A stretch of 8,182 nucleotides of DNA, taken from the IMG/VR virus record IMGVR_UViG_2695420732_000017; one strand, written 5' to 3'. The first letter of the stretch is position 1. Each line of letters opens with the position of its first letter. Made by a program: the position numbers and the translations under genes. The DNA is from a virus. Its lineage: Duplodnaviria; Heunggongvirae; Uroviricota; Caudoviricetes. Below are positions 1 through 8,182 of the stretch, one piece after another. Under the pieces are notes generated by a model, which searched no databases, had not been told where the DNA came from, and worked only from the letters and a program-made list of their open reading frames with translations.

Positions 1-363
1 GCACTGGAGCAGGCGTTGTGGGCCCGTCGGCCGTCCGGCACAATCCATCACAGTGATAAAGGTTCTCAGTATGTATCGCTGGCCTACACGCAGCGGCTTA
101 AGGAAGCCGGATTACTGGCATCAACAGGGAGTACTGGCGACTCGTATGACAACGCGATGGCTGAGAGCATCAATGGTCTTTACAAAGCGGAGGTAATACA
201 CCGTAAGAGCTGGAAAAACCGGACAGAAGTGGAACTGGCCACACTAACGTGGGTGGACTGGTATAACAATCGACGATTGCTGGAAAGGCTGGGCCATATT
301 CCTCCGGCAGAAGCAGAAAAAGCTTATTATGCTTCCATCGGAAATAATGATCTGGCAGCCTGA
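1..363 (+). CDS. IS3-family transposase OrfB (DDE integrase core), C-terminal part; 5' end lies outside the window
   Basis: The reading frame is open from base 1 to the TGA at 361-363. The translation contains HSDKGSQY (second catalytic Asp) and YDNAMAESINGLYK (catalytic Glu followed by Lys seven residues later), the signature of the IS3-family DDE transposase C-terminus. G+C is about half, unlike the adjacent AT-rich island. Confidence 0.85.
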   Translation, partial: ALEQALWARRPSGTIHHSDKGSQYVSLAYTQRLKEAGLLASTGSTGDSYDNAMAESINGLYKAEVIHRKSWKNRTEVELATLTWVDWYNNRRLLERLGHIPPAEAEKAYYASIGNNDLAA

Positions 364-430
364 GTTCACAGATAAAATACTCTCCAGGAAACCCGGGGCG
401 GTTCAGTTTGCCAATTTTTGCGATATAAAT
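1..430 (+). mobile_element. Right-hand portion of an IS3-family insertion sequence; exact terminal inverted repeat not determinable from one end
   Basis: The transposase gene ends at 363 and an IS3-type terminal repeat normally follows within a few tens of bp. The composition switches to AT-rich by about 410-430. The boundary is approximate because the other IS end is not available to pair with. Confidence 0.45.
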
Positions 431-483
431 TTCAATGTCCGAAGAACCATTAATTGTTAATTGATTCTGTATAAGGTATTAAC

Positions 484-1581
484 ATGACAATTTCATATAT
501 TCCTATTCTGAAAGCGAAACGTTCTGAGTTATCAGCTTTATCGCAGCTATCCATTGAAAAGAAATCAAAAATTTTGCCATTACTCGAAATTGAACCAGTG
601 CCAATTGACCCTGATTCAGGTATTGCCTTAAAGAGTTATAACGAGACTCTTATAGAGTTCGGAAAGAAAGTCTCAAAATCTTGCTCAGATATGCAAGGTG
701 TTTATATTGATGGATTATTAATTGAAGAGCATTTTATTTCTCCTGAAGATCATTACCCTATAATAAATGCGGTTAATCAAGTTAGAGATATGGGGATAAG
801 AGTTATTCCTGTCAGTTCACCAACTCGCCCATCTAACTATAAAAGAGCGATTGATGAATTAATGCAGAATGAAATATGCTTGAGATTAACCACGTTAGAT
901 CTGGTTAACCCACAATTAATAACGCATTACATTAATCATCTGGGAATTCCTTTATCAAATATTGATATAATTATTGACTTAAGAGATGAGTTAACCGAGG
1001 ATAAAATTAATTCCGGCGAACTATATACTTTGGCAATGGGATTGATAAACAATCTGGCGCACCTCAATGAATACAGAAAAGTGATTCTTTCTGGGGGTTC
1101 ATTTCCTACAGATCTCAGTGATATTTCTGTTGGTCTATATTCTCAACCTCGAATCGAGTGGATTTTATGGCAGAGTTTAATGAATAGAAAAGAACTTGCC
1201 AGAAATGTGATTTATAGTGATTATGGAGTACAGCACCCCGACTTTAATAGGCTTTCGACGCGATTCCCTAGCGTATCTGCCAGCGTCAGATACTCTGGAG
1301 ATAATGACTTTTGGGTATTTCGAGGAAGAGTAGCTAATCGCTTTGGTTATGAACAATATGGTAAACATAGTGAGGATATTCTTGCTCATCGAGAATATTC
1401 AGGGCCTACATTCTGTGCGGGAGATAGAGACATAGAATATTATGCAAACGAGTATCAAGCCTACAAAGCCAATCCCTCTGGTAACTATAAATTTGGTAGC
1501 CCAGAGGTATGGCGTAGGATTGGGCAAAACCATCACATAACTAAGGTTGTTGAGCAACTCGCCACTCTTTACGGGCTTTAA
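484..1581 (+). CDS. Beta-protein-like (Pfam Beta_protein / NCBI sce7725-family-like) protein of unknown function, 365 aa
   Basis: ATG at 484 is the first start after an in-frame TAA (472-474), with an AAGG Shine-Dalgarno 7 nt upstream. Clean 365-codon ORF, strongly AT-rich (roughly one-third G+C by eye). The N-terminus TISYIPILKAKRSELSAL matches, from memory, the hallmark start of the Beta-protein / sce7725 family. The family call is unverified. Confidence 0.75.
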   Translation: MTISYIPILKAKRSELSALSQLSIEKKSKILPLLEIEPVPIDPDSGIALKSYNETLIEFGKKVSKSCSDMQGVYIDGLLIEEHFISPEDHYPIINAVNQVRDMGIRVIPVSSPTRPSNYKRAIDELMQNEICLRLTTLDLVNPQLITHYINHLGIPLSNIDIIIDLRDELTEDKINSGELYTLAMGLINNLAHLNEYRKVILSGGSFPTDLSDISVGLYSQPRIEWILWQSLMNRKELARNVIYSDYGVQHPDFNRLSTRFPSVSASVRYSGDNDFWVFRGRVANRFGYEQYGKHSEDILAHREYSGPTFCAGDRDIEYYANEYQAYKANPSGNYKFGSPEVWRRIGQNHHITKVVEQLATLYGL

Positions 1582-2119
1582 GTTTAACTCGAACAGCTTC
1601 ACGAAGCTCGCCAACATCCATACTATTGGCGAGTTTTGACCATAAGACGCGTTTAGGTTTATTTTTCAAATTCTGTAGCTCCCCTACATCACTTAATAGG
1701 GAAAGCAATTCATCTTTCCAAAGAAGCATTGTTAAGGAAAGTTTGTCCACTTGTGGATTCAACTTGCTAGTTCGAATTGTTTTTAAATGGATACCTTGCC
1801 GTGCACCTTGCGTAACTTGCTTTATCCCCCACCATGATGGAACTATGCTTAAAGCATCATAAAGATGGCAATCAGAGACAACCAAAGTTACTTTATCCAT
1901 CACTGATGAGTAATGTTGCACCTGCGCTGGTAATCTGAGCAAGTTATCACTCTTGCTCTTCAACTCATAACCATGTATAAGCCCATTGATCACTGCTATA
2001 TCAGCTCTGCTAGCCCCTAGATTCATCGTAAACTCATCAATGATTAGGGTGTCAGGATCTTTATGATGATCTCTCAGAATCTTGGCATGCACAGCCTTTC
2101 TTACATCAATGTCTCTCAT
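1541..2119 (-). CDS. PD-(D/E)xK nuclease-fold protein (sce7726-family-like), 192 aa
   Basis: Open frame on the minus strand with ATG at 2119-2117 and an in-frame stop six codons upstream; stop codon at 1543-1541. N-terminal motifs IIDEF (E29), RADIAV (D40) and GYELKS (E52-x-K54) have the spacing of a restriction-endonuclease-like PD-(D/E)xK core. AT-rich like its neighbour. Shine-Dalgarno is weak. Confidence 0.75.
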   Translation of the reverse strand: MRDIDVRKAVHAKILRDHHKDPDTLIIDEFTMNLGASRADIAVINGLIHGYELKSKSDNLLRLPAQVQHYSSVMDKVTLVVSDCHLYDALSIVPSWWGIKQVTQGARQGIHLKTIRTSKLNPQVDKLSLTMLLWKDELLSLLSDVGELQNLKNKPKRVLWSKLANSMDVGELREAVRVKLKARKEWRVAQQP

Positions 2120-2158
2120 ACCATAGTTGCGCTTTCATCGACTCTCTCAAGCCATGAT

Positions 2159-2167
2159 TCTATATCA
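2159..2167 (-). promoter_or_regulatory. Possible extended -10 element (TGaTATAGA) for an independent promoter of the nuclease-like gene
   Basis: On the minus strand the sequence TGATATAGAAT lies about 40 nt upstream of the ATG at 2119, inside a 305-bp ORF-free gap. No convincing -35 was found, so this is tentative. Confidence 0.3.
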
Positions 2168-2424
2168 TGGTTCGCATGAATGCCATTTGATATGACCAGT
2201 GGTTAAACATTGCACAGAAAAGTGGATGTGTATTTTAACAAAAGCAATGACGGCTAACCATGTTGGTATGTCGATAAAATGTTTCAACGTAAGCATTATC
2301 TGTTCCGCCCTTTCAGACGGCCTCCTGATGTTCTGAGGGTGCAGAATCCCTCCGGTTAAGGATTTAATAAAAATCGTTTCTGATTTAAATCTTCAGTATT
2401 TAGTTGTTAGTCGGTTTATAGCCT

Positions 2425-2736: not shown

Positions 2737-2983
2737 TTCTGTTCTCCCACGTTTTCAGACTTTCACCACAGAACGGACAAAATGAAACCCGAACTGGTAA
2801 TTTAGAAAATTCACCGGAACGCAACATCACAAAATCAGGACCGCGAGTTAAACTCTCATTCCAGATTTTGTATATCAGCAGACCTTTTCGCATCGTGTAT
2901 TCAGCATCATGCTCAAGGGACTTTGCCAGTGCTGCACATGGTTCTATCTTGTTGCCATTAACCTGGCATTTTGATTCACTCAC
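2729..2983 (-). CDS. Hypothetical small protein with a C-terminal CPFCG zinc-ribbon-like motif, 84 aa
   Basis: GTG start at 2983 overlaps the TGA of the upstream gene (GTGA) and is preceded by a strong GAGGAGG Shine-Dalgarno 7 nt upstream. Cys residues at positions 6, 16, 69 and 72. Confidence 0.65.
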   Translation of the reverse strand: MSESKCQVNGNKIEPCAALAKSLEHDAEYTMRKGLLIYKIWNESLTRGPDFVMLRSGEFSKLPVRVSFCPFCGESLKTWENRNE

Positions 2984-3402
2984 CGCACCACCTCCTCAAA
3001 ATTCCCCTGATAAAACGCCAGTACGCGCTGCATAACTTCGCTCTTCCGGCACTCGAGACAGATTATGTTCAGACGCCTGTCGTAGCGGCGTATTTCGCCA
3101 TCTGGTAATGACCAGATAAGGTCCGGATCAACCGCAGATGGTTTCTTCAGCTTTGCCCTTGAGAGTTTTTTGCGGGCATTTTGCCAGTCTTTACGAGCCT
3201 GTTCAGACGGGAATAACCCGTAGCCAGAATTGTATACATCGCCACTGGCAACCAGCTCTCTGGCCAGAACGCTCATCAGATATCTTGTTGCCCCAGTTTT
3301 AGTTTCCAGTTGTCGTAACGTCTCGCGCCCACTCTGGCGTACGAGTTCAACAACCTGCCCTTTAATTTTTTCCCGCTCTTCTTGTGTAAAAACTTTTGCC
3401 AC
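2980..3402 (-). CDS. Hypothetical prophage protein, 140 aa, basic
   Basis: GTG start at 3402 is preceded by AGGAGG with a 4-nt spacer. The gene lies directly downstream of the replication initiator in the same operon orientation. Confidence 0.7.
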   Translation of the reverse strand: MAKVFTQEEREKIKGQVVELVRQSGRETLRQLETKTGATRYLMSVLARELVASGDVYNSGYGLFPSEQARKDWQNARKKLSRAKLKKPSAVDPDLIWSLPDGEIRRYDRRLNIICLECRKSEVMQRVLAFYQGNFEEVVR

Positions 3403-3442
3403 AAGCCCTCCTGAAAGTTACCTCATGACCAGAAATTAACAC

Positions 3443-4405
3443 TTACCCCCTGAAGCCCGGCGGAATTTCAGTGTCCGGTTCAGAAATGTGATTCACGCAA
3501 CGCTGCGCAGGCGAACGCCCCAGGCGGATAACCAGTTCATCCCATTTTTCCCGGAGTTTTGCCGGACTCATGATGTTTTTTACCCAGAACGAATCCCGCT
3601 GGAGACGCCCAAACATTTCACAAATTTGTCTGTGAGTTCTGCCATCCAGCATCCGCATTGTGCGAACGTCATTGGCCCATGCTGTCCAGTTGGGTTCTTT
3701 CGGTCTAGTGATCTCGCCATCATAGCTGGCCGCCTGCTCGTAAAGACTCACGATTCGTCCCCAGATCCACTGTGCGCACACCAAATCTTCCTGACTTCCC
3801 CACTGGCGTTTTTTCGCACTGAACACAACCGCGTCAGGGTGTCGGGTTAAAAAATCCTGTTCAGCCGTCTGCGGGTCCGGTTGCGAAGCGTCCGGACAAG
3901 AAGATCTTTTATCTGACGGATCAGGTTTTAATACTGACGGATCGGGGTCAATCATCGCCCCCCTAATCGGCAGTTTTTTATCAACAGTTGATCCATCAAA
4001 ATTTGACGGGTCAACCGTTGAGGGGGCAATATTTGACGGGTCAACTGTTAACTGGTCATTTTTTGCCGGGCTAATTTTTCTTTTCGGTTTATATGACTCA
4101 CGCGCCGCCGCAGCTGCTGCTTCGAGTTTTTCCACATTAAGCCGATAGATATTGCTTACATTACGCCCACCGACCTTACGCTCTTCCTTCGTCAGCCAGC
4201 CCTCTTTCGCCAGTTCTGCAATAGCCGATTTCACTGTGGATTCACTTCTTGCACCGATCTGACGCCGGATAGTTTCAATGGCAGGCCATGACACACCCTC
4301 GTCATTGCTGTAGTCTGCAAGACGGGCCATAACCGCCACCCTGGATAAGATCATGCCGGTGAAGGCGCACCCTTCCCAGACAAGACCATGAAGCTTGCTG
4401 CTCAT
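3443..4405 (-). CDS. Phage replication initiator, lambda O-like architecture (N-terminal winged-helix/HTH, repeat-containing linker, C-terminal domain)
   Basis: 320-codon ORF from the ATG at 4405 (a GTG at 4420 is an alternative start), with a GGGGG Shine-Dalgarno just upstream. The N-terminal segment WPAIETIRRQIGARSESTVKSAIAELAKEGWL is HTH-like. The central region encodes repeated TVDPSN / DPDPS units from DNA direct repeats, as seen in lambda O where the origin lies inside the gene. Confidence 0.8.
   Translation of the reverse strand: MSSKLHGLVWEGCAFTGMILSRVAVMARLADYSNDEGVSWPAIETIRRQIGARSESTVKSAIAELAKEGWLTKEERKVGGRNVSNIYRLNVEKLEAAAAAARESYKPKRKISPAKNDQLTVDPSNIAPSTVDPSNFDGSTVDKKLPIRGAMIDPDPSVLKPDPSDKRSSCPDASQPDPQTAEQDFLTRHPDAVVFSAKKRQWGSQEDLVCAQWIWGRIVSLYEQAASYDGEITRPKEPNWTAWANDVRTMRMLDGRTHRQICEMFGRLQRDSFWVKNIMSPAKLREKWDELVIRLGRSPAQRCVNHISEPDTEIPPGFRG
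3912..4095. repeat. Putative replication origin: four direct iterons (core TGACGG(A/G)TC) plus an adjacent AT-rich stretch, inside the initiator gene
   Basis: TGACGGATC occurs at about 3914 and 3935; the longer TTTGACGGGTCAAC(C/T)GTT occurs at about 4001 and 4031. An AT-rich tract (about 4055-4095: cattttttgccgggctaatttttcttttcggtttatatga) lies beside them. Confidence 0.55.
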
Positions 4406-4427
4406 AAAACCCCCGAACACCGTGCTT

Positions 4428-4853
4428 TTAGTGCATCACCACAGCATTCCCTGCCGGGCCGCCGCGATTCATCTGGTCATACAAAACAACCGCTGACGCA
4501 ACAAAATCGTCGACATCCTTCACCAGCCGATCCCGCCGTTCGACAATCTCCCGGTAATACTCAGAGCTGTGACTGCGCATACGGGCCACCAGCAGAGGCG
4601 GCATTGCCTTTTCGATCGCCGGTAACAGAGCCTGAATTTTTTCAACAGCATCAGGGGTGTCTTTATCCAGCCAACGGAAAATTTTCTGTGTATTACGGGC
4701 CAGGGCTTCCGGATGGCTGTCGTCGTACAGTTCAGGGAACGTCATCCCCAGTTCGAAATAAGTCCGGGCTATTTCAGCTGCAGGAACTTTCTCACCATCA
4801 GGGTATGCCCAGGCATTCATCGCCATGCGGATGTGCTCATGTTTGATTTTCAT
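4428..4853 (-). CDS. ydaT: YdaT-like prophage protein (recalled as DUF1019 / Toxin_YdaT family), 141 aa
   Basis: The N-terminus MKIKHEHI and C-terminus ...VVMH match my recollection of Rac prophage YdaT. The gene overlaps the upstream ydaS-like gene by 17 nt. Confidence 0.7.
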   Translation of the reverse strand: MKIKHEHIRMAMNAWAYPDGEKVPAAEIARTYFELGMTFPELYDDSHPEALARNTQKIFRWLDKDTPDAVEKIQALLPAIEKAMPPLLVARMRSHSSEYYREIVERRDRLVKDVDDFVASAVVLYDQMNRGGPAGNAVVMH

Positions 4854-5160
4854 GAATCATTTGCCTCTTGATGCTTCGGGTATGATCGTTTTCGTCATTT
4901 GGTTGCTTCATCGACATATTCTGCGAATAACATGACGAGCGTCGTAAGTATGTCCAATCAACATCAGGACGAAGTTCTTCACACAGGACACCACCTTTTG
5001 TTGCTCGTTCAATCGCAGGACATCTCTCAGCAGGCAACTGACGTACACCTTTGATCCATTGATTTACGCTTGGAGGAGATACACCTAAAAGCCTAGCCAT
5101 TGCTGATTGCCCACCGACAACAGCACAAGCTCGTTTGAATGAATAGTTATCTTTTTTCAT
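4837..5160 (-). CDS. ydaS: YdaS-like Cro/CI-type HTH protein (Cro analogue), 107 aa
   Basis: ATG at 5160 is preceded by GGAG with an 8-nt spacer; the ORF track's longer version begins at a GTG at 5181 with no ribosome-binding site. The HTH segment QSAMARLLGVSPPSVNQWIKG is typical of YdaS-like proteins. The gene is divergent from the repressor gene. Confidence 0.75.
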   Translation of the reverse strand: MKKDNYSFKRACAVVGGQSAMARLLGVSPPSVNQWIKGVRQLPAERCPAIERATKGGVLCEELRPDVDWTYLRRSSCYSQNMSMKQPNDENDHTRSIKRQMIHENQT

Positions 5161-5187
5161 CGAATGAACTCCAAAAAACACGCAACA

Positions 5188-5231
5188 ATATTAGGCTTAG
5201 CCTAATACAATTGTCAATAGGCTATGCCTAA
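5188..5231 (-). promoter_or_regulatory. Leftward sigma70-type promoter with operator half-sites (TTAGGC...GCCTAA) for the ydaS-ydaT-replication operon
   Basis: Read on the minus strand: TTAGGCATAGCCTA, then TTGACA (-35, plus-strand 5212-5217), an 18-nt spacer containing TTAGGCTAAGCC, then TAATAT (-10, plus-strand 5188-5193). A third operator-like site (attgcctaa) sits at about 5248-5256, near the repressor gene start. Confidence 0.55.
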
Positions 5232-5284
5232 CACATCGAGAGTAGGGATTGCCTAACGCGATGCGCATAGGAGACTATTAAGCA

Positions 5285-5761
5285 ATGCTTAGTGGTAAAG
5301 ACTTAGGCCGAGCGATAGAGCAGGCCATTAACAAAAAAATTGCATCAGGAGCCGTCAAATCAAAGGCGGAAATCGCACGTCATTTCAAAGTCCAACCACC
5401 ATCAATCCATGACTGGATTAAGAAAGGTTCGATAAGTAAAGACAAACTTCCAGAACTATGGCGTTTCTTTTCTGATGTGGTTGGTCCAGAGCATTGGGGG
5501 CTTAACGAATACCCCATACCAACCCCATCCACTTCAGATACAAAAAGTGAACTTTTAGACATAAACAGCCTTTATCAAGCCGCCTCTGATGAAAAAAGAG
5601 CAATTGTGGCTTTCCTCTTATCTGGAAATGCTACGGAGCCTAGTTGGGTTGATCATGACGTTCGCGCCTACATTGCCGCAATGGAAATGAAGGTAGCTAA
5701 CTATCTGAAAAATCAAGAATCAAAACGGAAAAGCCAGAACATCACCAAGACAGGAACTTAA
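5285..5761 (+). CDS. Prophage repressor, HTH DNA-binding protein (RacR/DicA-type functional analogue), 158 aa
   Basis: ATG at 5285 with AGGAG 11 nt upstream. HTH segment KSKAEIARHFKVQPPSIHDWIKKGSIS. Divergent from the Cro-like gene and flanked by operator-bearing promoters. The length (158 aa) fits my recollection of RacR, but the assignment is not verified. Confidence 0.8.
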   Translation: MLSGKDLGRAIEQAINKKIASGAVKSKAEIARHFKVQPPSIHDWIKKGSISKDKLPELWRFFSDVVGPEHWGLNEYPIPTPSTSDTKSELLDINSLYQAASDEKRAIVAFLLSGNATEPSWVDHDVRAYIAAMEMKVANYLKNQESKRKSQNITKTGT

Positions 5762-5775
5762 ACTTATATGGTCCG

Positions 5776-5797
5776 ACGGGAAATTCCTAGTTCCCGT
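5776..5797 (+). terminator. Hairpin immediately after the repressor stop codon (7-bp perfect stem ACGGGAA/TTCCCGT, 8-nt loop); possible terminator or processing site
   Basis: A perfect inverted repeat lies 15 nt after the TAA at 5759-5761. There is no clear U-tract, so intrinsic-terminator function is uncertain. Confidence 0.3.
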
Positions 5798-5855
5798 TAG
5801 TTAACTCCTACTACCTCTCCCACAAACCATCACCTATTAGGTCGCGCCCAAATTA

Positions 5856-5898
5856 TTAGGCATAGCCTATTGACAAGTAATTAGGCATTTCCTATAGT
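5856..5898 (+). promoter_or_regulatory. Rightward near-consensus sigma70 promoter with two operator sites, driving the dicB-type operon
   Basis: TTAGGCATAGCCTA (5856-5869) abuts TTGACA (5870-5875); a 17-nt spacer contains TTAGGCATTTCC; then TATAGT (5893-5898). The 20-mer ttaggcatagcctattgaca is an exact inverted copy of 5212-5231. Confidence 0.6.
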
Positions 5899-6079
5899 TT
5901 TCCCATACCAACCCATCCCGTCCCACACAATACAGGGCAATACCTCGAGTTACCAGGCAGTGGTCAGGGGTTAAGTAGCCAGCCCGAGGCGTAAGAACAT
6001 GACGGCAGGGTTCAACTTTAATAACTATGCAGCAGGTTTTTGTTCCGCTACCCCGGCGTTAAGGGGAAATGAGGTCAGC

Positions 6080-6235
6080 ATGGATACTATCGATCTTGGC
6101 AACAGCGAATCTCTGGTATGTGGCGTGTTCCCCAACCAGGACGGTACGTTCACCGCGATGACGTATACCAAAAGCAAAACGTTTAAAACCGAATCTGGAG
6201 CGCGTCGCTGGCTGGAAAGAAATTCAGGTGGGTGA
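6080..6235 (+). CDS. ydfA: YdfA-like small prophage protein, 51 aa
   Basis: ATG at 6080 with GAGG 5 nt upstream. The ORF track's N-terminal extension back to 5999 lacks a ribosome-binding site. Size and position (first gene after the repressor-controlled promoter) match the Qin dicB operon order as I recall it: ydfA 51 aa, ydfB 42 aa, ydfC 72 aa. Confidence 0.6.
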   Translation: MDTIDLGNSESLVCGVFPNQDGTFTAMTYTKSKTFKTESGARRWLERNSGG

Positions 6236-6236
6236 T

Positions 6237-6365
6237 ATGGATTTCGACACAATCATGGAAAAGGCTTACGAAGAATACTTCGAAGGCCTTGCCGAAGGCG
6301 AAGAAGCTCTCAGCTTCAGCGAATTTAAACAGGCGCTTTCCAGCTCGGCAAAATCTAACGGCTGA
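6237..6365 (+). CDS. ydfB: YdfB-like small acidic protein, 42 aa
   Basis: ATG at 6237 is 1 nt after the ydfA-like stop (tightly coupled). The ORF was missed by the six-frame track because of its size. Translation: MDFDTIMEKAYEEYFEGLAEGEEALSFSEFKQALSSSAKSNG. Confidence 0.5.
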   Translation: MDFDTIMEKAYEEYFEGLAEGEEALSFSEFKQALSSSAKSNG

Positions 6366-6395
6366 TAAGCGAAAACAGCACCGCGAGGAATCAGT

Positions 6396-6614
6396 ATGCA
6401 GAAACGAGAACCCGTCATCATCGCGCCAGACTATACCGATGATGAACTTTATGAGTGGATGCACCAGAAAATTAATGCAGCGCAGGATCTGAAATGGGCC
6501 AATGAAGCCAGGGCTAAGCAGGCTGAAAATCTGTCCGCTCTGGAGCAGGATATCACCAATCTGGAAAAAGCAGCGGCATTAAGCATTGCCAGCATGATTA
6601 CATACCCGCGTTAA
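6396..6614 (+). CDS. ydfC: YdfC-like protein, 72 aa
   Basis: ATG at 6396 with GAGG 6-7 nt upstream. Its 72-aa size and position before the DicF locus match the Qin dicB operon. Confidence 0.6.
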   Translation: MQKREPVIIAPDYTDDELYEWMHQKINAAQDLKWANEARAKQAENLSALEQDITNLEKAAALSIASMITYPR

Positions 6615-6953
6615 TAGCTAACCAACGAAGCTAAGGTTGGTAATTAAGGAGTTCTCCACGGGTAAAGTGGAGTGCGTGCGCCGGACACGGGTGAACATCC
6701 GGCACTGACAGTTTACTGAAAGGATATTTCTCTGAAAAGTCAGAGCATAACGCGAAAGCGCACGGCGAGGTTGCTGGTTCATAGATAGCCTGTCGTTAAA
6801 TTTTCGTCGACCGTGCGCTTCCGGTTGTGGCACTCCGCGAAATGGCGCGGCGGTAAGTATGGCGGGGTTATTTCTTCCCCGTTGAGGACACCGGGTTGTC
6901 AGGTTGACCATACGCTTAAGTGACAACCCCGCTGCAACGCCCTCTGTTATCAA

Positions 6954-7012
6954 TTTTCTGGTGACGTTTGGCGGTATCAGTTTTACTCCGTGGCTGCTCT
7001 GCCGCCCTTTTT
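6954..7012 (+). ncRNA. dicF: DicF small regulatory RNA (Hfq-dependent antisense sRNA of the dicB operon) with its rho-independent terminator
   Basis: The sequence tttctggtgacgtttggcggtatcagttttactccgtggctgctctgccgcccttttt matches my recollection of E. coli DicF almost base for base. The 3' end has a GC stem (GGCGG...CCGCC) followed by TTTTT. It sits between the ydfC-like gene and dicB, as in Qin. Confidence 0.75.
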
Positions 7013-7181
7013 AAAGTGAATTTTGTGATGCGGTGAATGCGGCTATGCGCACGCGGAACAGTTAAAACCAAAAACAGTGTTATGGGTGGATTCTCTGTAT
7101 CCGGCGTTAATTGTTAACTGGTTAACGTCACCTGGAGGCACCAGGCACTGCATCACAAAATTCATTGTTGAGGACGCGATA

Positions 7182-7370
7182 ATGGAAACGTTATTACCAA
7201 ACGTTAATACGTCTGAAGGTTGTTTTGATATTGGTGTTCTGCTCAGTAACCGGGAGTTTACTGAAGATGCCATTAAGATGAGAAAATATGAACCTTATCT
7301 TCTCAATGATAATTCCATACTTTCCAGAATTGCCCTTCTTGAACTTGGTATTATCGGAGAACAGCAGTGA
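7182..7370 (+). CDS. dicB: DicB-like cell-division inhibitor (MinC-dependent), 62 aa
   Basis: ATG at 7182 with AGGA 7 nt upstream. The N-terminus METLLPNVNTSEGCF matches my recollection of DicB. The 62-aa size and position directly after DicF agree. Confidence 0.7.
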   Translation: METLLPNVNTSEGCFDIGVLLSNREFTEDAIKMRKYEPYLLNDNSILSRIALLELGIIGEQQ

Positions 7371-7555
7371 CTTCAGCGTTTGCACTGGTGATGACCGTTT
7401 TTCTTATAACGGGTGAGCCACAAAATGTGATTACCGGAATTTATGACAGTAAGTCATCCTGCATTCAGGTAAGGGACGAACAAAAAATCCCCGGTGAATG
7501 CCTCCCGTTAAAAAAAGTATTGCTGTACCTGAATAACGAAACGCCGGCTGGATAA
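7367..7555 (+). CDS. ydfD: YdfD-like small membrane protein (lysis-associated in Qin), about 62 aa
   Basis: GTG at 7367 overlaps the dicB TGA (GTGA coupling); an alternative ATG lies at 7391. Hydrophobic N-terminal segment AFALVMTVFLITG. Position after dicB matches Qin ydfD. Confidence 0.55.
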   Translation: MTSAFALVMTVFLITGEPQNVITGIYDSKSSCIQVRDEQKIPGECLPLKKVLLYLNNETPAG

Positions 7556-7650
7556 ACCTCCAGCCATATTAACGCCATACCAACGGATTAAAAATGCCAG
7601 CAATGGCAGGGATTTATTCATCCTTAAATCTGTCATGAGGTTAAAACAAA

Positions 7651-8182
7651 ATGAGTAAAGTCTTTATTTGCGCCGCTATTCCTGACGAACTGGCAACAAG
7701 GGAAGAAGGCGCTGTGGCTGTAGCCACAGCCATTGAAGCTGGCGACGAACGCCGTGCTCGAGCAAAATTTCACTGGCAGTTCCTGGAACATTATCCGGCT
7801 GCTCAGGACTGCGCTTATAAATTTATTGTCTGCGAGGATAAACCTGGCATACCCCGCCCTGCCCTCGATTCATGGGATGCTGAATATATGCAGGAAAACC
7901 GCTGGGATGAGGAGTCTGCTTCTTTTGTCCCGGTTGAGACTGAATCCGATCCGATGAACGTCACTTTTGACAAGCTGGCCCCTGAAGTACAGAACGCTGT
8001 CATGGTTAAGTTCGACACATGTGAAAACATCACCGTTGATATGGTGATTAGCGCACAGGAATTGTTGCAGGAAGACATGGCAACATTCGACGGACATATC
8101 GTTGAAGCGTTGATGAAAATGCCAGAAGTTAACGCCATGTATCCGGAGCTTAAGCTGCATGCCATCGGGTGGGTTAAGCATA
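7651..8182 (+). CDS. Hypothetical acidic prophage protein, 3' end beyond the window (at least 177 aa); possibly YdfE-like
   Basis: ATG at 7651 with GAGG 10 nt upstream. Hand translation (MSKVFICAAIPDELATREEG...) runs without a stop to the window end. The six-frame track omits it because it has no stop inside the window. Confidence 0.6.
   Translation, partial: MSKVFICAAIPDELATREEGAVAVATAIEAGDERRARAKFHWQFLEHYPAAQDCAYKFIVCEDKPGIPRPALDSWDAEYMQENRWDEESASFVPVETESDPMNVTFDKLAPEVQNAVMVKFDTCENITVDMVISAQELLQEDMATFDGHIVEALMKMPEVNAMYPELKLHAIGWVKH

Follow-up and report, generated by a model that had tools for sequence, protein, structure and literature searches.

Positions 405-2424 of a stretch of virus DNA 8,182 nucleotides (nt) long (IMG/VR record IMGVR_UViG_2695420732_000017; Duplodnaviria; Heunggongvirae; Uroviricota; Caudoviricetes; this whole stretch is hereafter called the window) form an AT-rich island with two convergent genes, one for a Beta protein and one for a protein similar to cII of phage P4. 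This pair almost certainly corresponds to beta and cII of the P4 gop-beta-cII locus, judging by profile matches and gene order. New here is that the pair is bare: it is accompanied neither by gop nor by the HigB and Xre-peptidase genes of the PD-lambda-2 system. We estimate the probability at roughly 0.5 that the island is the bare core of the gop-beta-cII/PD-lambda-2 family, carried as cargo by a lambdoid prophage and serving as a defence module. An original prediction, made from the letters of the window, had described the island as an uncharacterised candidate defence system without an established function. This part of it was superseded, as the genes belong to P4 beta/cII, Pfam has a family named Phage_P4_cII, and the GenBank record of the Rac-SA53 phage names both genes. 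Rather than a system of a categorically new kind, the island is a minimal, partner-less form of a known family, the mechanism of which is unsolved.

Proteins Encoded by the Island

Only two open reading frames (ORFs) of at least 100 amino acids (aa) are located within positions 400-2424, namely the 365-aa gene at 484-1581 (+) and the 192-aa gene at 1541-2119 (-). They are the two substantial genes named in the original prediction, which did not mention that they are convergent and have 41 nt in common (1541-1581).

The 365-aa protein belongs to the Pfam family Beta_protein (PF14350), as had been supposed; the match has 178.3 bits against a cutoff of 27 and spans residues 5-356 (model positions 1-341 of 342). 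The YIPILKAKRSE segment opens this match, and its residues Y5, P7, L9, K12, and E15 are invariant. The name sce7725, which had been attached to the same protein, has to be rejected: on the NCBIfam model sce7725_fam (NF033831) the protein scores 12.3 bits, where the cutoff is 60, and the alignment is limited to residues 5-39. The model also has no match in six further Beta proteins paired with sce7726 genes, among them those of Sorangium and Nannocystis. Among the PADLOC models, the Beta protein is most similar to those of PD-Lambda-2_C (140 and 131 bits), with a weak match to the P4 "beta" model (18 bits); the P4 beta protein scores 38 bits on the Beta profile built in this analysis. The predicted fold is a (beta/alpha)8, or triosephosphate isomerase (TIM), barrel, the strands of which have conserved polar residues at their C-terminal ends. 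About 25 residues are invariant, and the charged ones among them are enzyme-like. A comparison of the Beta profile with the sequences of solved structures revealed nothing (best E 0.84).

The 192-aa protein was correctly assigned to the sce7726 family: NCBIfam sce7726_fam (NF033832) gives 191.1 bits against a cutoff of 70 for residues 1-184 (model positions 1-183 of 184). This family is the same as Pfam Phage_P4_cII (PF26915), which is precomputed on the 99%-identical protein P0001 and on all listed homologues, and the PADLOC "cll" model gives 98 bits. The E29/D40/E52-x-K54 set, also noticed earlier, is indeed present and is invariant in alignments of 38 and of 46 homologues, including P4 cII and a protein of a Gordonia phage. 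The anticipated restriction-endonuclease-like fold is supported as well; the N-terminal domain combines the alpha/beta core with the E/D/ExK residues of the PD-(D/E)xK superfamily. The cII-like protein is thus a predicted PD-(D/E)xK nuclease with an intact E-D-ExK site.

The best structural match of the cII-like protein is an uncharacterised protein, MmcB-like/SPO1766 (PDB 3dnx), and a close homologue appears in one database source under the name "DNA repair protein MmcB-like". In the Gordonia phage Powerball (genes 32/33, L004 4872-6684), the homologue of cII is annotated as "exonuclease" and stands together with Beta. When the profile was compared with the sequences of solved structures, no relation was found (best E 0.58), and this includes the PD-(D/E)xK nucleases MmcB-like/SPO1766, the nuclease domains of Can2 and NucS, and type II restriction endonucleases. 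It also differs from them in having its own C-terminal helical domain and in its partner, which is always the TIM-barrel protein, whereas those nucleases are associated with a methyltransferase, a CARF domain, or similar.

Relationship to the gop-beta-cII and PD-lambda-2 Systems

In P4, gop (247-648, +), which encodes a small membrane toxin and is co-transcribed with beta, is followed by beta (651-1718, +), a terminator, and cII (1746-2540, -). The locus protects E. coli against lambda and P1 (Rousset 2022, PMC9122126), Gop is toxic without beta (Ghisotti 1990, as cited in PMC9122126), and the coliphage accessory gene orf184 triggers gop-beta-cII toxicity (Silas et al., bioRxiv 10.1101/2023.04.06.535777). 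The system has been reported in Proteobacteria only, and in a 2024 survey it was still listed under "unknown function"; in the literature, nothing on the mechanism of Beta or cII was found beyond the phenotype papers of 2022-2024.

The window shares with P4 gop-beta-cII (Rst_gop_beta_cll in DefenseFinder, gop_beta_cll in PADLOC) both protein families, the order of beta followed by a convergent cII, the location on a mobile element, and the invariant E/D/ExK residues of cII. The sce7726 model gives P4 cII 151.4 bits; the P4 protein is 28% identical to that of the window (tblastn) and keeps all catalytic-type residues. Several differences can be noted. There is no gop in the window, in the E. 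coli copies free of the insertion sequence (IS), or in any of the 80 genome loci described below, and a phmmer search with P4 Gop gave nothing at E <= 10 in the window or in 85 loci, the 80 genome loci among them. The place directly upstream of Beta, occupied by gop in P4, is taken here by an IS3-family element. The Beta protein is distant from P4 beta, P4 cII has a C-terminal extension and is 264 aa long compared with 192 aa here, and the P4 genes are separated, while here and almost everywhere else they overlap.

PD-lambda-2 comprises a HigB-like component A, a toxic Xre-peptidase B, and a component C described as "related to a P4 phage antitoxin" (Vassallo et al. 2022, PMC9519451); C is needed for defence, though not for neutralising B (PMC9519451). 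The Beta protein of the window belongs to the component C family (140 bits), while component A and component B, the latter an Xre-M78 peptidase, are absent here. The A and B models of PADLOC matched neither the Beta nor the cII-like protein, the two proteins scanned, and no HigB or M78 peptidase domain was found with Pfam in the ten largest ORFs of the window.

Of 69 non-redundant loci, 14 have a homologue of PD-Lambda-2_B (up to 434 bits) directly upstream of Beta and on the same strand, with HigB (PD-Lambda-2_A) or a DUF6932 protein in front of it. When the search was started from the B protein, HigB-B-Beta with a convergent cII was found at all five places. All PD-lambda-2-type loci (L040, L044, L046, L049, L059, L060, L077, L078, L081, L083-L085, L144-L148) contain a convergent, overlapping cII gene, which makes the natural loci of this type four-gene units, in contrast to the published three-gene definition that does not include cII. 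Judging by these loci, PD-lambda-2 probably has an overlooked fourth gene. The clone from ECOR42 (contig QOYB01000002, genes 229385-232009, clone 228989-232396) ends 396 bp past the Beta stop codon, so that a convergent cII, if present there, would be without its catalytic N-terminal half. A search for homologues of the B protein gave no E. coli entry among the best 120 of 3028 proteins. One such locus, L145, contains a full-length cII gene (6200-7100, 215 bits) missed by the gene caller of its source, probably because of the overlap with Beta, and genes of this kind may be under-annotated.

The HigB/ImmA-IrrE (Xre-M78 peptidase) genes are known as two-gene toxin-antitoxin-like modules. They stand upstream of Beta in PD-lambda-2-type relatives and are absent from the window; a tblastn search of plasmids showed that HigB-ImmA/IrrE pairs also occur without Beta or cII, and they are a separate module. 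The simplest reading of these arrangements would be a Beta-cII core that in some cases is joined by one or another toxin module.

Pairing and Distribution

A pattern scan of a one-genome-per-species collection (185,579 genomes) revealed 445 stretches encoding a relative of cII, and 80 loci were kept. They span Proteobacteria, Firmicutes, Actinobacteria, Acidobacteria, Chloroflexi, Myxococcota, Melainabacteria, and the candidate phyla radiation (CPR). Beta is immediately downstream of cII and convergent with it in 77 of these loci; two of the three exceptions are at a contig edge. The sole clear exception away from a contig edge is Xenorhabdus koppenhoeferi (L014 6001-6718), where cII occurs without Beta and a 55-aa antisense ORF is left at its 3' end. 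Among the viral loci found via Beta, a convergent cII was present in 51 of 53, and both exceptions are truncated Beta genes. These counts bear out the expected conservation of the pair across genomes and indicate that Beta and cII are a near-obligate pair across many phyla.

The pair is also found in temperate phages of Gordonia, Mycolicibacterium, and Myxococcus, as well as in non-phage islands with integrases or resolvases. In the Powerball genome the pair is found next to HicAB, in the region from the tail genes to the integrase; in actinobacteriophages, this region is often home to defence genes expressed in the lysogen.

Both genes are carried by 93 of 5426 complete E. coli genomes, always on the chromosome and always together, in prophages with differing neighbour modules; in 92 of the 93 carriers the pair is intact and at least 99% identical. 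The IS-free copy in ML775 (NZ_CP193495; L001 about 7523-10020) is 100% identical and has hokD as its upstream neighbour about 560 nt away; no Gop-like ORF was found upstream of its Beta gene. The Rac-SA53 phage is 99.7% identical over the island, and its genes are named "beta" and "CII phage-like protein" in GenBank. A second E. coli variant (L141-L143) encodes a Beta protein of 355 aa and a cII of 206 aa (54% identity in cII) with an overlap of 59 nt; its two genes stand alone in lambdoid prophages, flanked by the lysis gene Rz on one side and the terminase gene Nu1 on the other.

According to mechanical ORF calls, no close same-strand ORF precedes Beta in about 46 of 78 loci, and the stand-alone pair is therefore the commoner arrangement. 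The small ORFs of the window at 2165-2296 (-) and 2199-2336 (+) and the intergenic flanks were not conserved in the other enterobacterial loci, so that the conserved unit consists of exactly two genes. The nearest neighbours of the pair include integrases, primases, and scattered defence proteins (Kiwa KwaB, dGTPase, dCTPase, a type III methyltransferase, MzaA, and SNF2-type helicases). This neighbourhood signal is suggestive only, because it has no matched baseline.

Antisense Overlap of the 3' Ends

All the pairs are convergent, and their 3' ends overlap in 76 of 79 cases (median 53 nt, range 11-158). The length of the overlap is 2 modulo 3 nt, that is, the antisense phase is the same, in all 92 non-redundant overlapping pairs (loci L004, L006-L140). 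Moreover, in 83 of 94 non-redundant pairs, the distance from the codon of an invariant Beta histidine (H351 here) downstream to that of an invariant cII lysine (K181) is exactly 43 nt. In the window, the dual-strand coding stretch is 41 nt long (1541-1581) and comprises Beta residues 353-365 and cII-like residues 180-192, each with the stop codon. Opposite strands of the same DNA encode the conserved LKxRxxW motif at the cII C-terminus and the conserved C-terminal helix of Beta.

A comparison of ten enterobacterial pairs showed a nucleotide identity of 0.72 in the overlap versus 0.56 and 0.63 in the non-overlapping parts; the third-codon conservation in Beta is 0.64 inside the overlap and 0.37 outside. 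This pattern indicates that the overlap is under dual constraint. Given the single register and the prevailing 43-nt offset, the dual-coded stretch is ancestral and did not arise by chance shifts of the stop codons. P4 is an exception: its genes do not overlap and are separated by a 27-nt gap with the cII terminator. Mutation of this terminator reportedly disturbs the expression of P4 beta.

Genomic Context of the Pair

The window begins inside an IS3-family insertion sequence, the right end of which occupies positions 1-404 (+), with the end of the element at about 404-410. It encodes the C-terminal 115 aa of the transposase (16-363), recognised by the Pfam models rve_3, rve_2, and rve and by NCBIfam transpos_IS3 (116.7 bits, model positions 269-369 of 369). 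Many E. coli records contain IS3-family copies that match positions 1-410 with 100% identity, and the E. coli prophage matches to the window all begin at 405.

The GC content is 0.52 at 1-404, 0.381 at 405-2424, and 0.48 at 2984-8182, with the lowest values among 200-nt windows (0.315-0.375) at 401-1000. The abrupt drop in GC content described in the original prediction is thus real and sharp on the left, where the IS3-family element ends, while the average, at 38%, is higher than the one-third estimated by eye. On the right the change is gradual, and 2425-2983 still has 0.43, compared with about 0.48 in the remainder of the window to the right of the island.

Only 79 nt of the native region upstream of Beta remain (405-483, +), with a Shine-Dalgarno-like AAGG at 473-476. 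The insertion removes the rest of the hokD-beta intergenic region of about 560 nt known from IS-free strains (compared with L001 7523-8079). The region upstream of the cII-like gene (2120-2304, -) contains a tentative sigma-70-like site at 2186-2157 (ATGGCA-18-TAGAAT), found by a consensus scan; 2120-2304 is not conserved outside E. coli, and nothing similar to it was found beside other enterobacterial pairs. Promoter and terminator counts in a scan of 300-2500 did not exceed those in shuffled sequence, and no terminator was found between or within the gene ends. A repeat scan revealed nothing meaningful, and no Rfam family was found in 400-2424.

IS elements cluster near the pair. In addition to the IS3-family end 79 nt upstream of Beta, a different IS3 insertion is located 553 nt upstream in O121 RM8352, an ISEsa1 fragment is present in FORC_028, and in Rac-SA53 an IS1 is found between cII and the next gene. 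The IS sites beyond the window are L149 3285-4447, L002 6376-7425, and L005 5070-5835.

The junction segment at 2305-2424, located just downstream of the gene at 2425-2736, forms the right border of the cargo slot. It is common to many lambdoid phages that do not carry the pair, with matches of 64-122 nt at 82-94% identity, for example in mEp460, ArgO145, and Stx2a phages. In mEp460_4F5 and ArgO145, the two phages inspected, other genes lie on its far side. By these matches, the segment looks like a recombination junction of a cargo slot. Related phages have other cargo in the same slot. The earlier placement of the pair in a prophage accessory slot between the IS3 end and a replication module is upheld.

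To the right of the island follow two small hypothetical genes, DUF977, a replication-initiator-like helix-turn-helix protein, YdaT, YdaS/Cro, and a RacR-type repressor, with DUF977, the initiator-like protein, YdaT, and YdaS at 2980-5181. This gene content identifies the flank as the early region of a lambdoid prophage of the Rac/Qin type. The gene in the Cro position and its neighbour (4428-5181, -) match Pfam YdaS_toxin (104 bits) and YdaT_toxin (43 bits); despite the toxin-like names, they hold the regulatory positions of the immunity region here. The only RNA family found in the window is the DicF antisense small RNA at 6956-7007 (+) (Rfam RF00039, 75 bits), upstream of a gene that the matching E. 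coli record lists as a dicB homologue. Its presence agrees with a Qin/Rac-type prophage.

Proposed Function and Alternative Explanations

As a bare core of the gop-beta-cII/PD-lambda-2 family, the pair would be a two-component exclusion or abortive-infection module shielding the lysogen from other phages. The cII-like protein may act as the effector, a Mg2+-dependent DNA endonuclease, and Beta as the sensing or controlling partner. Such a role of Beta would be in line with the restraint of Gop by P4 beta and with the requirement for PD-lambda-2C in defence rather than in neutralisation. The overlapping convergent transcription units could couple the expression levels of both genes via antisense or transcriptional interference; the effect reported for the terminator mutation on P4 beta would agree with this. 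Gop in P4 and HigB with the Xre-M78 peptidase in PD-lambda-2 would be toxin modules added to the Beta-cII core and absent here.

A number of points weigh against the assignment to defence. Defence has been demonstrated in the three-gene relatives, and the two-gene form is known from its sequence; PADLOC-style rules call neither gop_beta_cll, as gop is missing, nor PD-Lambda-2, as A and B are missing. The PD-lambda-2 clone defended apparently without an intact cII, which weakens the claim that cII is the effector, and the known toxic component in P4 is Gop, not cII. The defence-like neighbours lack a baseline, as said above. The IS3-family element 79 nt upstream of Beta may have removed the promoter, and the scan of 300-2500 gave no promoter or terminator signal above chance. 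The defence function proposed in the original prediction is therefore strengthened by the homology of both proteins to components of two validated systems, but for the two-gene form it stays an inference. The proviso made there, that the pair might prove to be part of a larger known element, turned out to be half true: in known systems the pair is accompanied by gop or by HigB and the Xre-peptidase, and both are absent here.

A more far-reaching version is possible but tentative. Beta and cII would be an ancient autonomous two-gene immune or conflict module, from which gop-beta-cII and PD-lambda-2 were derived by the addition of toxin modules, PD-lambda-2 having the overlooked fourth gene. Beta would then be an enzyme acting on a small molecule or a nucleic acid, the dosage would be set by the antisense overlap, and one register would have been kept from Enterobacteria to Saccharimonadia and actinobacteriophages.

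Conversely, the pair could be an incomplete remnant, in which Beta and cII are accessory or regulatory parts that need Gop or HigB with the Xre-peptidase and are useless alone. It is true that the toxic parts of both validated systems are Gop and PD-lambda-2B rather than Beta or cII, that the window contains neither, and that an IS abuts the region upstream of Beta. Decay is nevertheless unlikely given that the stand-alone pair is the commoner form and recurs in two unrelated E. coli prophage slots and in actinobacteriophages, that both ORFs are intact with catalytic-type residues invariant across phyla, and that the pair is at least 99% conserved in 92 of its 93 E. coli carriers, with IS-free copies likewise partner-less. 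We regard as similarly improbable an addiction or stabilisation module that retains the prophage or mobile element, with the nuclease as a toxin, Beta as its antidote, their ratio set by the overlap, and any effect on phages incidental. Gop-beta has been called toxin-antitoxin-like in the literature, and the pair always resides on mobile elements, close to hok, HicAB, or RelE modules. In its obligate linkage and its overlapping, convergent arrangement it is reminiscent of loci for post-segregational killing. However, PD-lambda-2C is not required to neutralise toxicity, a 365-aa TIM barrel with so many invariant residues is unlike the typical small antitoxins, and an IS insertion close to Beta has been tolerated.

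Two further explanations seem to us less probable still. One is a system similar to restriction-modification, with Beta modifying DNA or a nucleotide in the manner of DpdA/TGT-type enzymes and the cII-like protein cutting unmarked DNA. A type II system would have a linked DNA methyltransferase, whereas the partner here is a TIM barrel without a methyltransferase domain; no methyltransferase recurs among the neighbours, and no methyltransferase or precursor-synthesis genes are linked to the pair. A TGT-specific similarity of Beta was not found either, DpdA being one among hundreds of equal-scoring TIM barrels, and the phenotypes of P4 and PD-lambda-2 are reported as abortive or toxin-like. The other is that the pair performs housekeeping of the phage itself, in DNA repair, recombination, or lysogeny control. 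The name "cII" and the location beside the replication module would fit this explanation, as would the MmcB-like resemblance of the nuclease, the top structural match of which, 3dnx, is an uncharacterised protein. It accords poorly, however, with the P4 genes being called non-essential in the literature, with the variable slot that holds other cargo in related phages, with the presence of the pair in just 93 of 5426 E. coli genomes despite the prophage type being widespread, and with its occurrence in non-phage islands.

Significance

The register-conserved overlap of Beta and cII is a rare and clear-cut bacterial example of dual coding kept over long evolutionary times, and it is also a practical warning for gene calling, as one caller missed cII in L145. 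The bare pair offers a minimal two-gene object for experiments, with catalytic-type residues to mutate in both proteins, and there is reason to re-examine PD-lambda-2 with the convergent gene intact. Two systems treated so far as unrelated three-gene toxin-antitoxin-like loci, gop-beta-cII and PD-lambda-2, share, by their protein families, a core of Beta and a cII-type predicted nuclease. This Beta-cII core has a much wider distribution than gop-beta-cII or PD-lambda-2 and usually stands alone.

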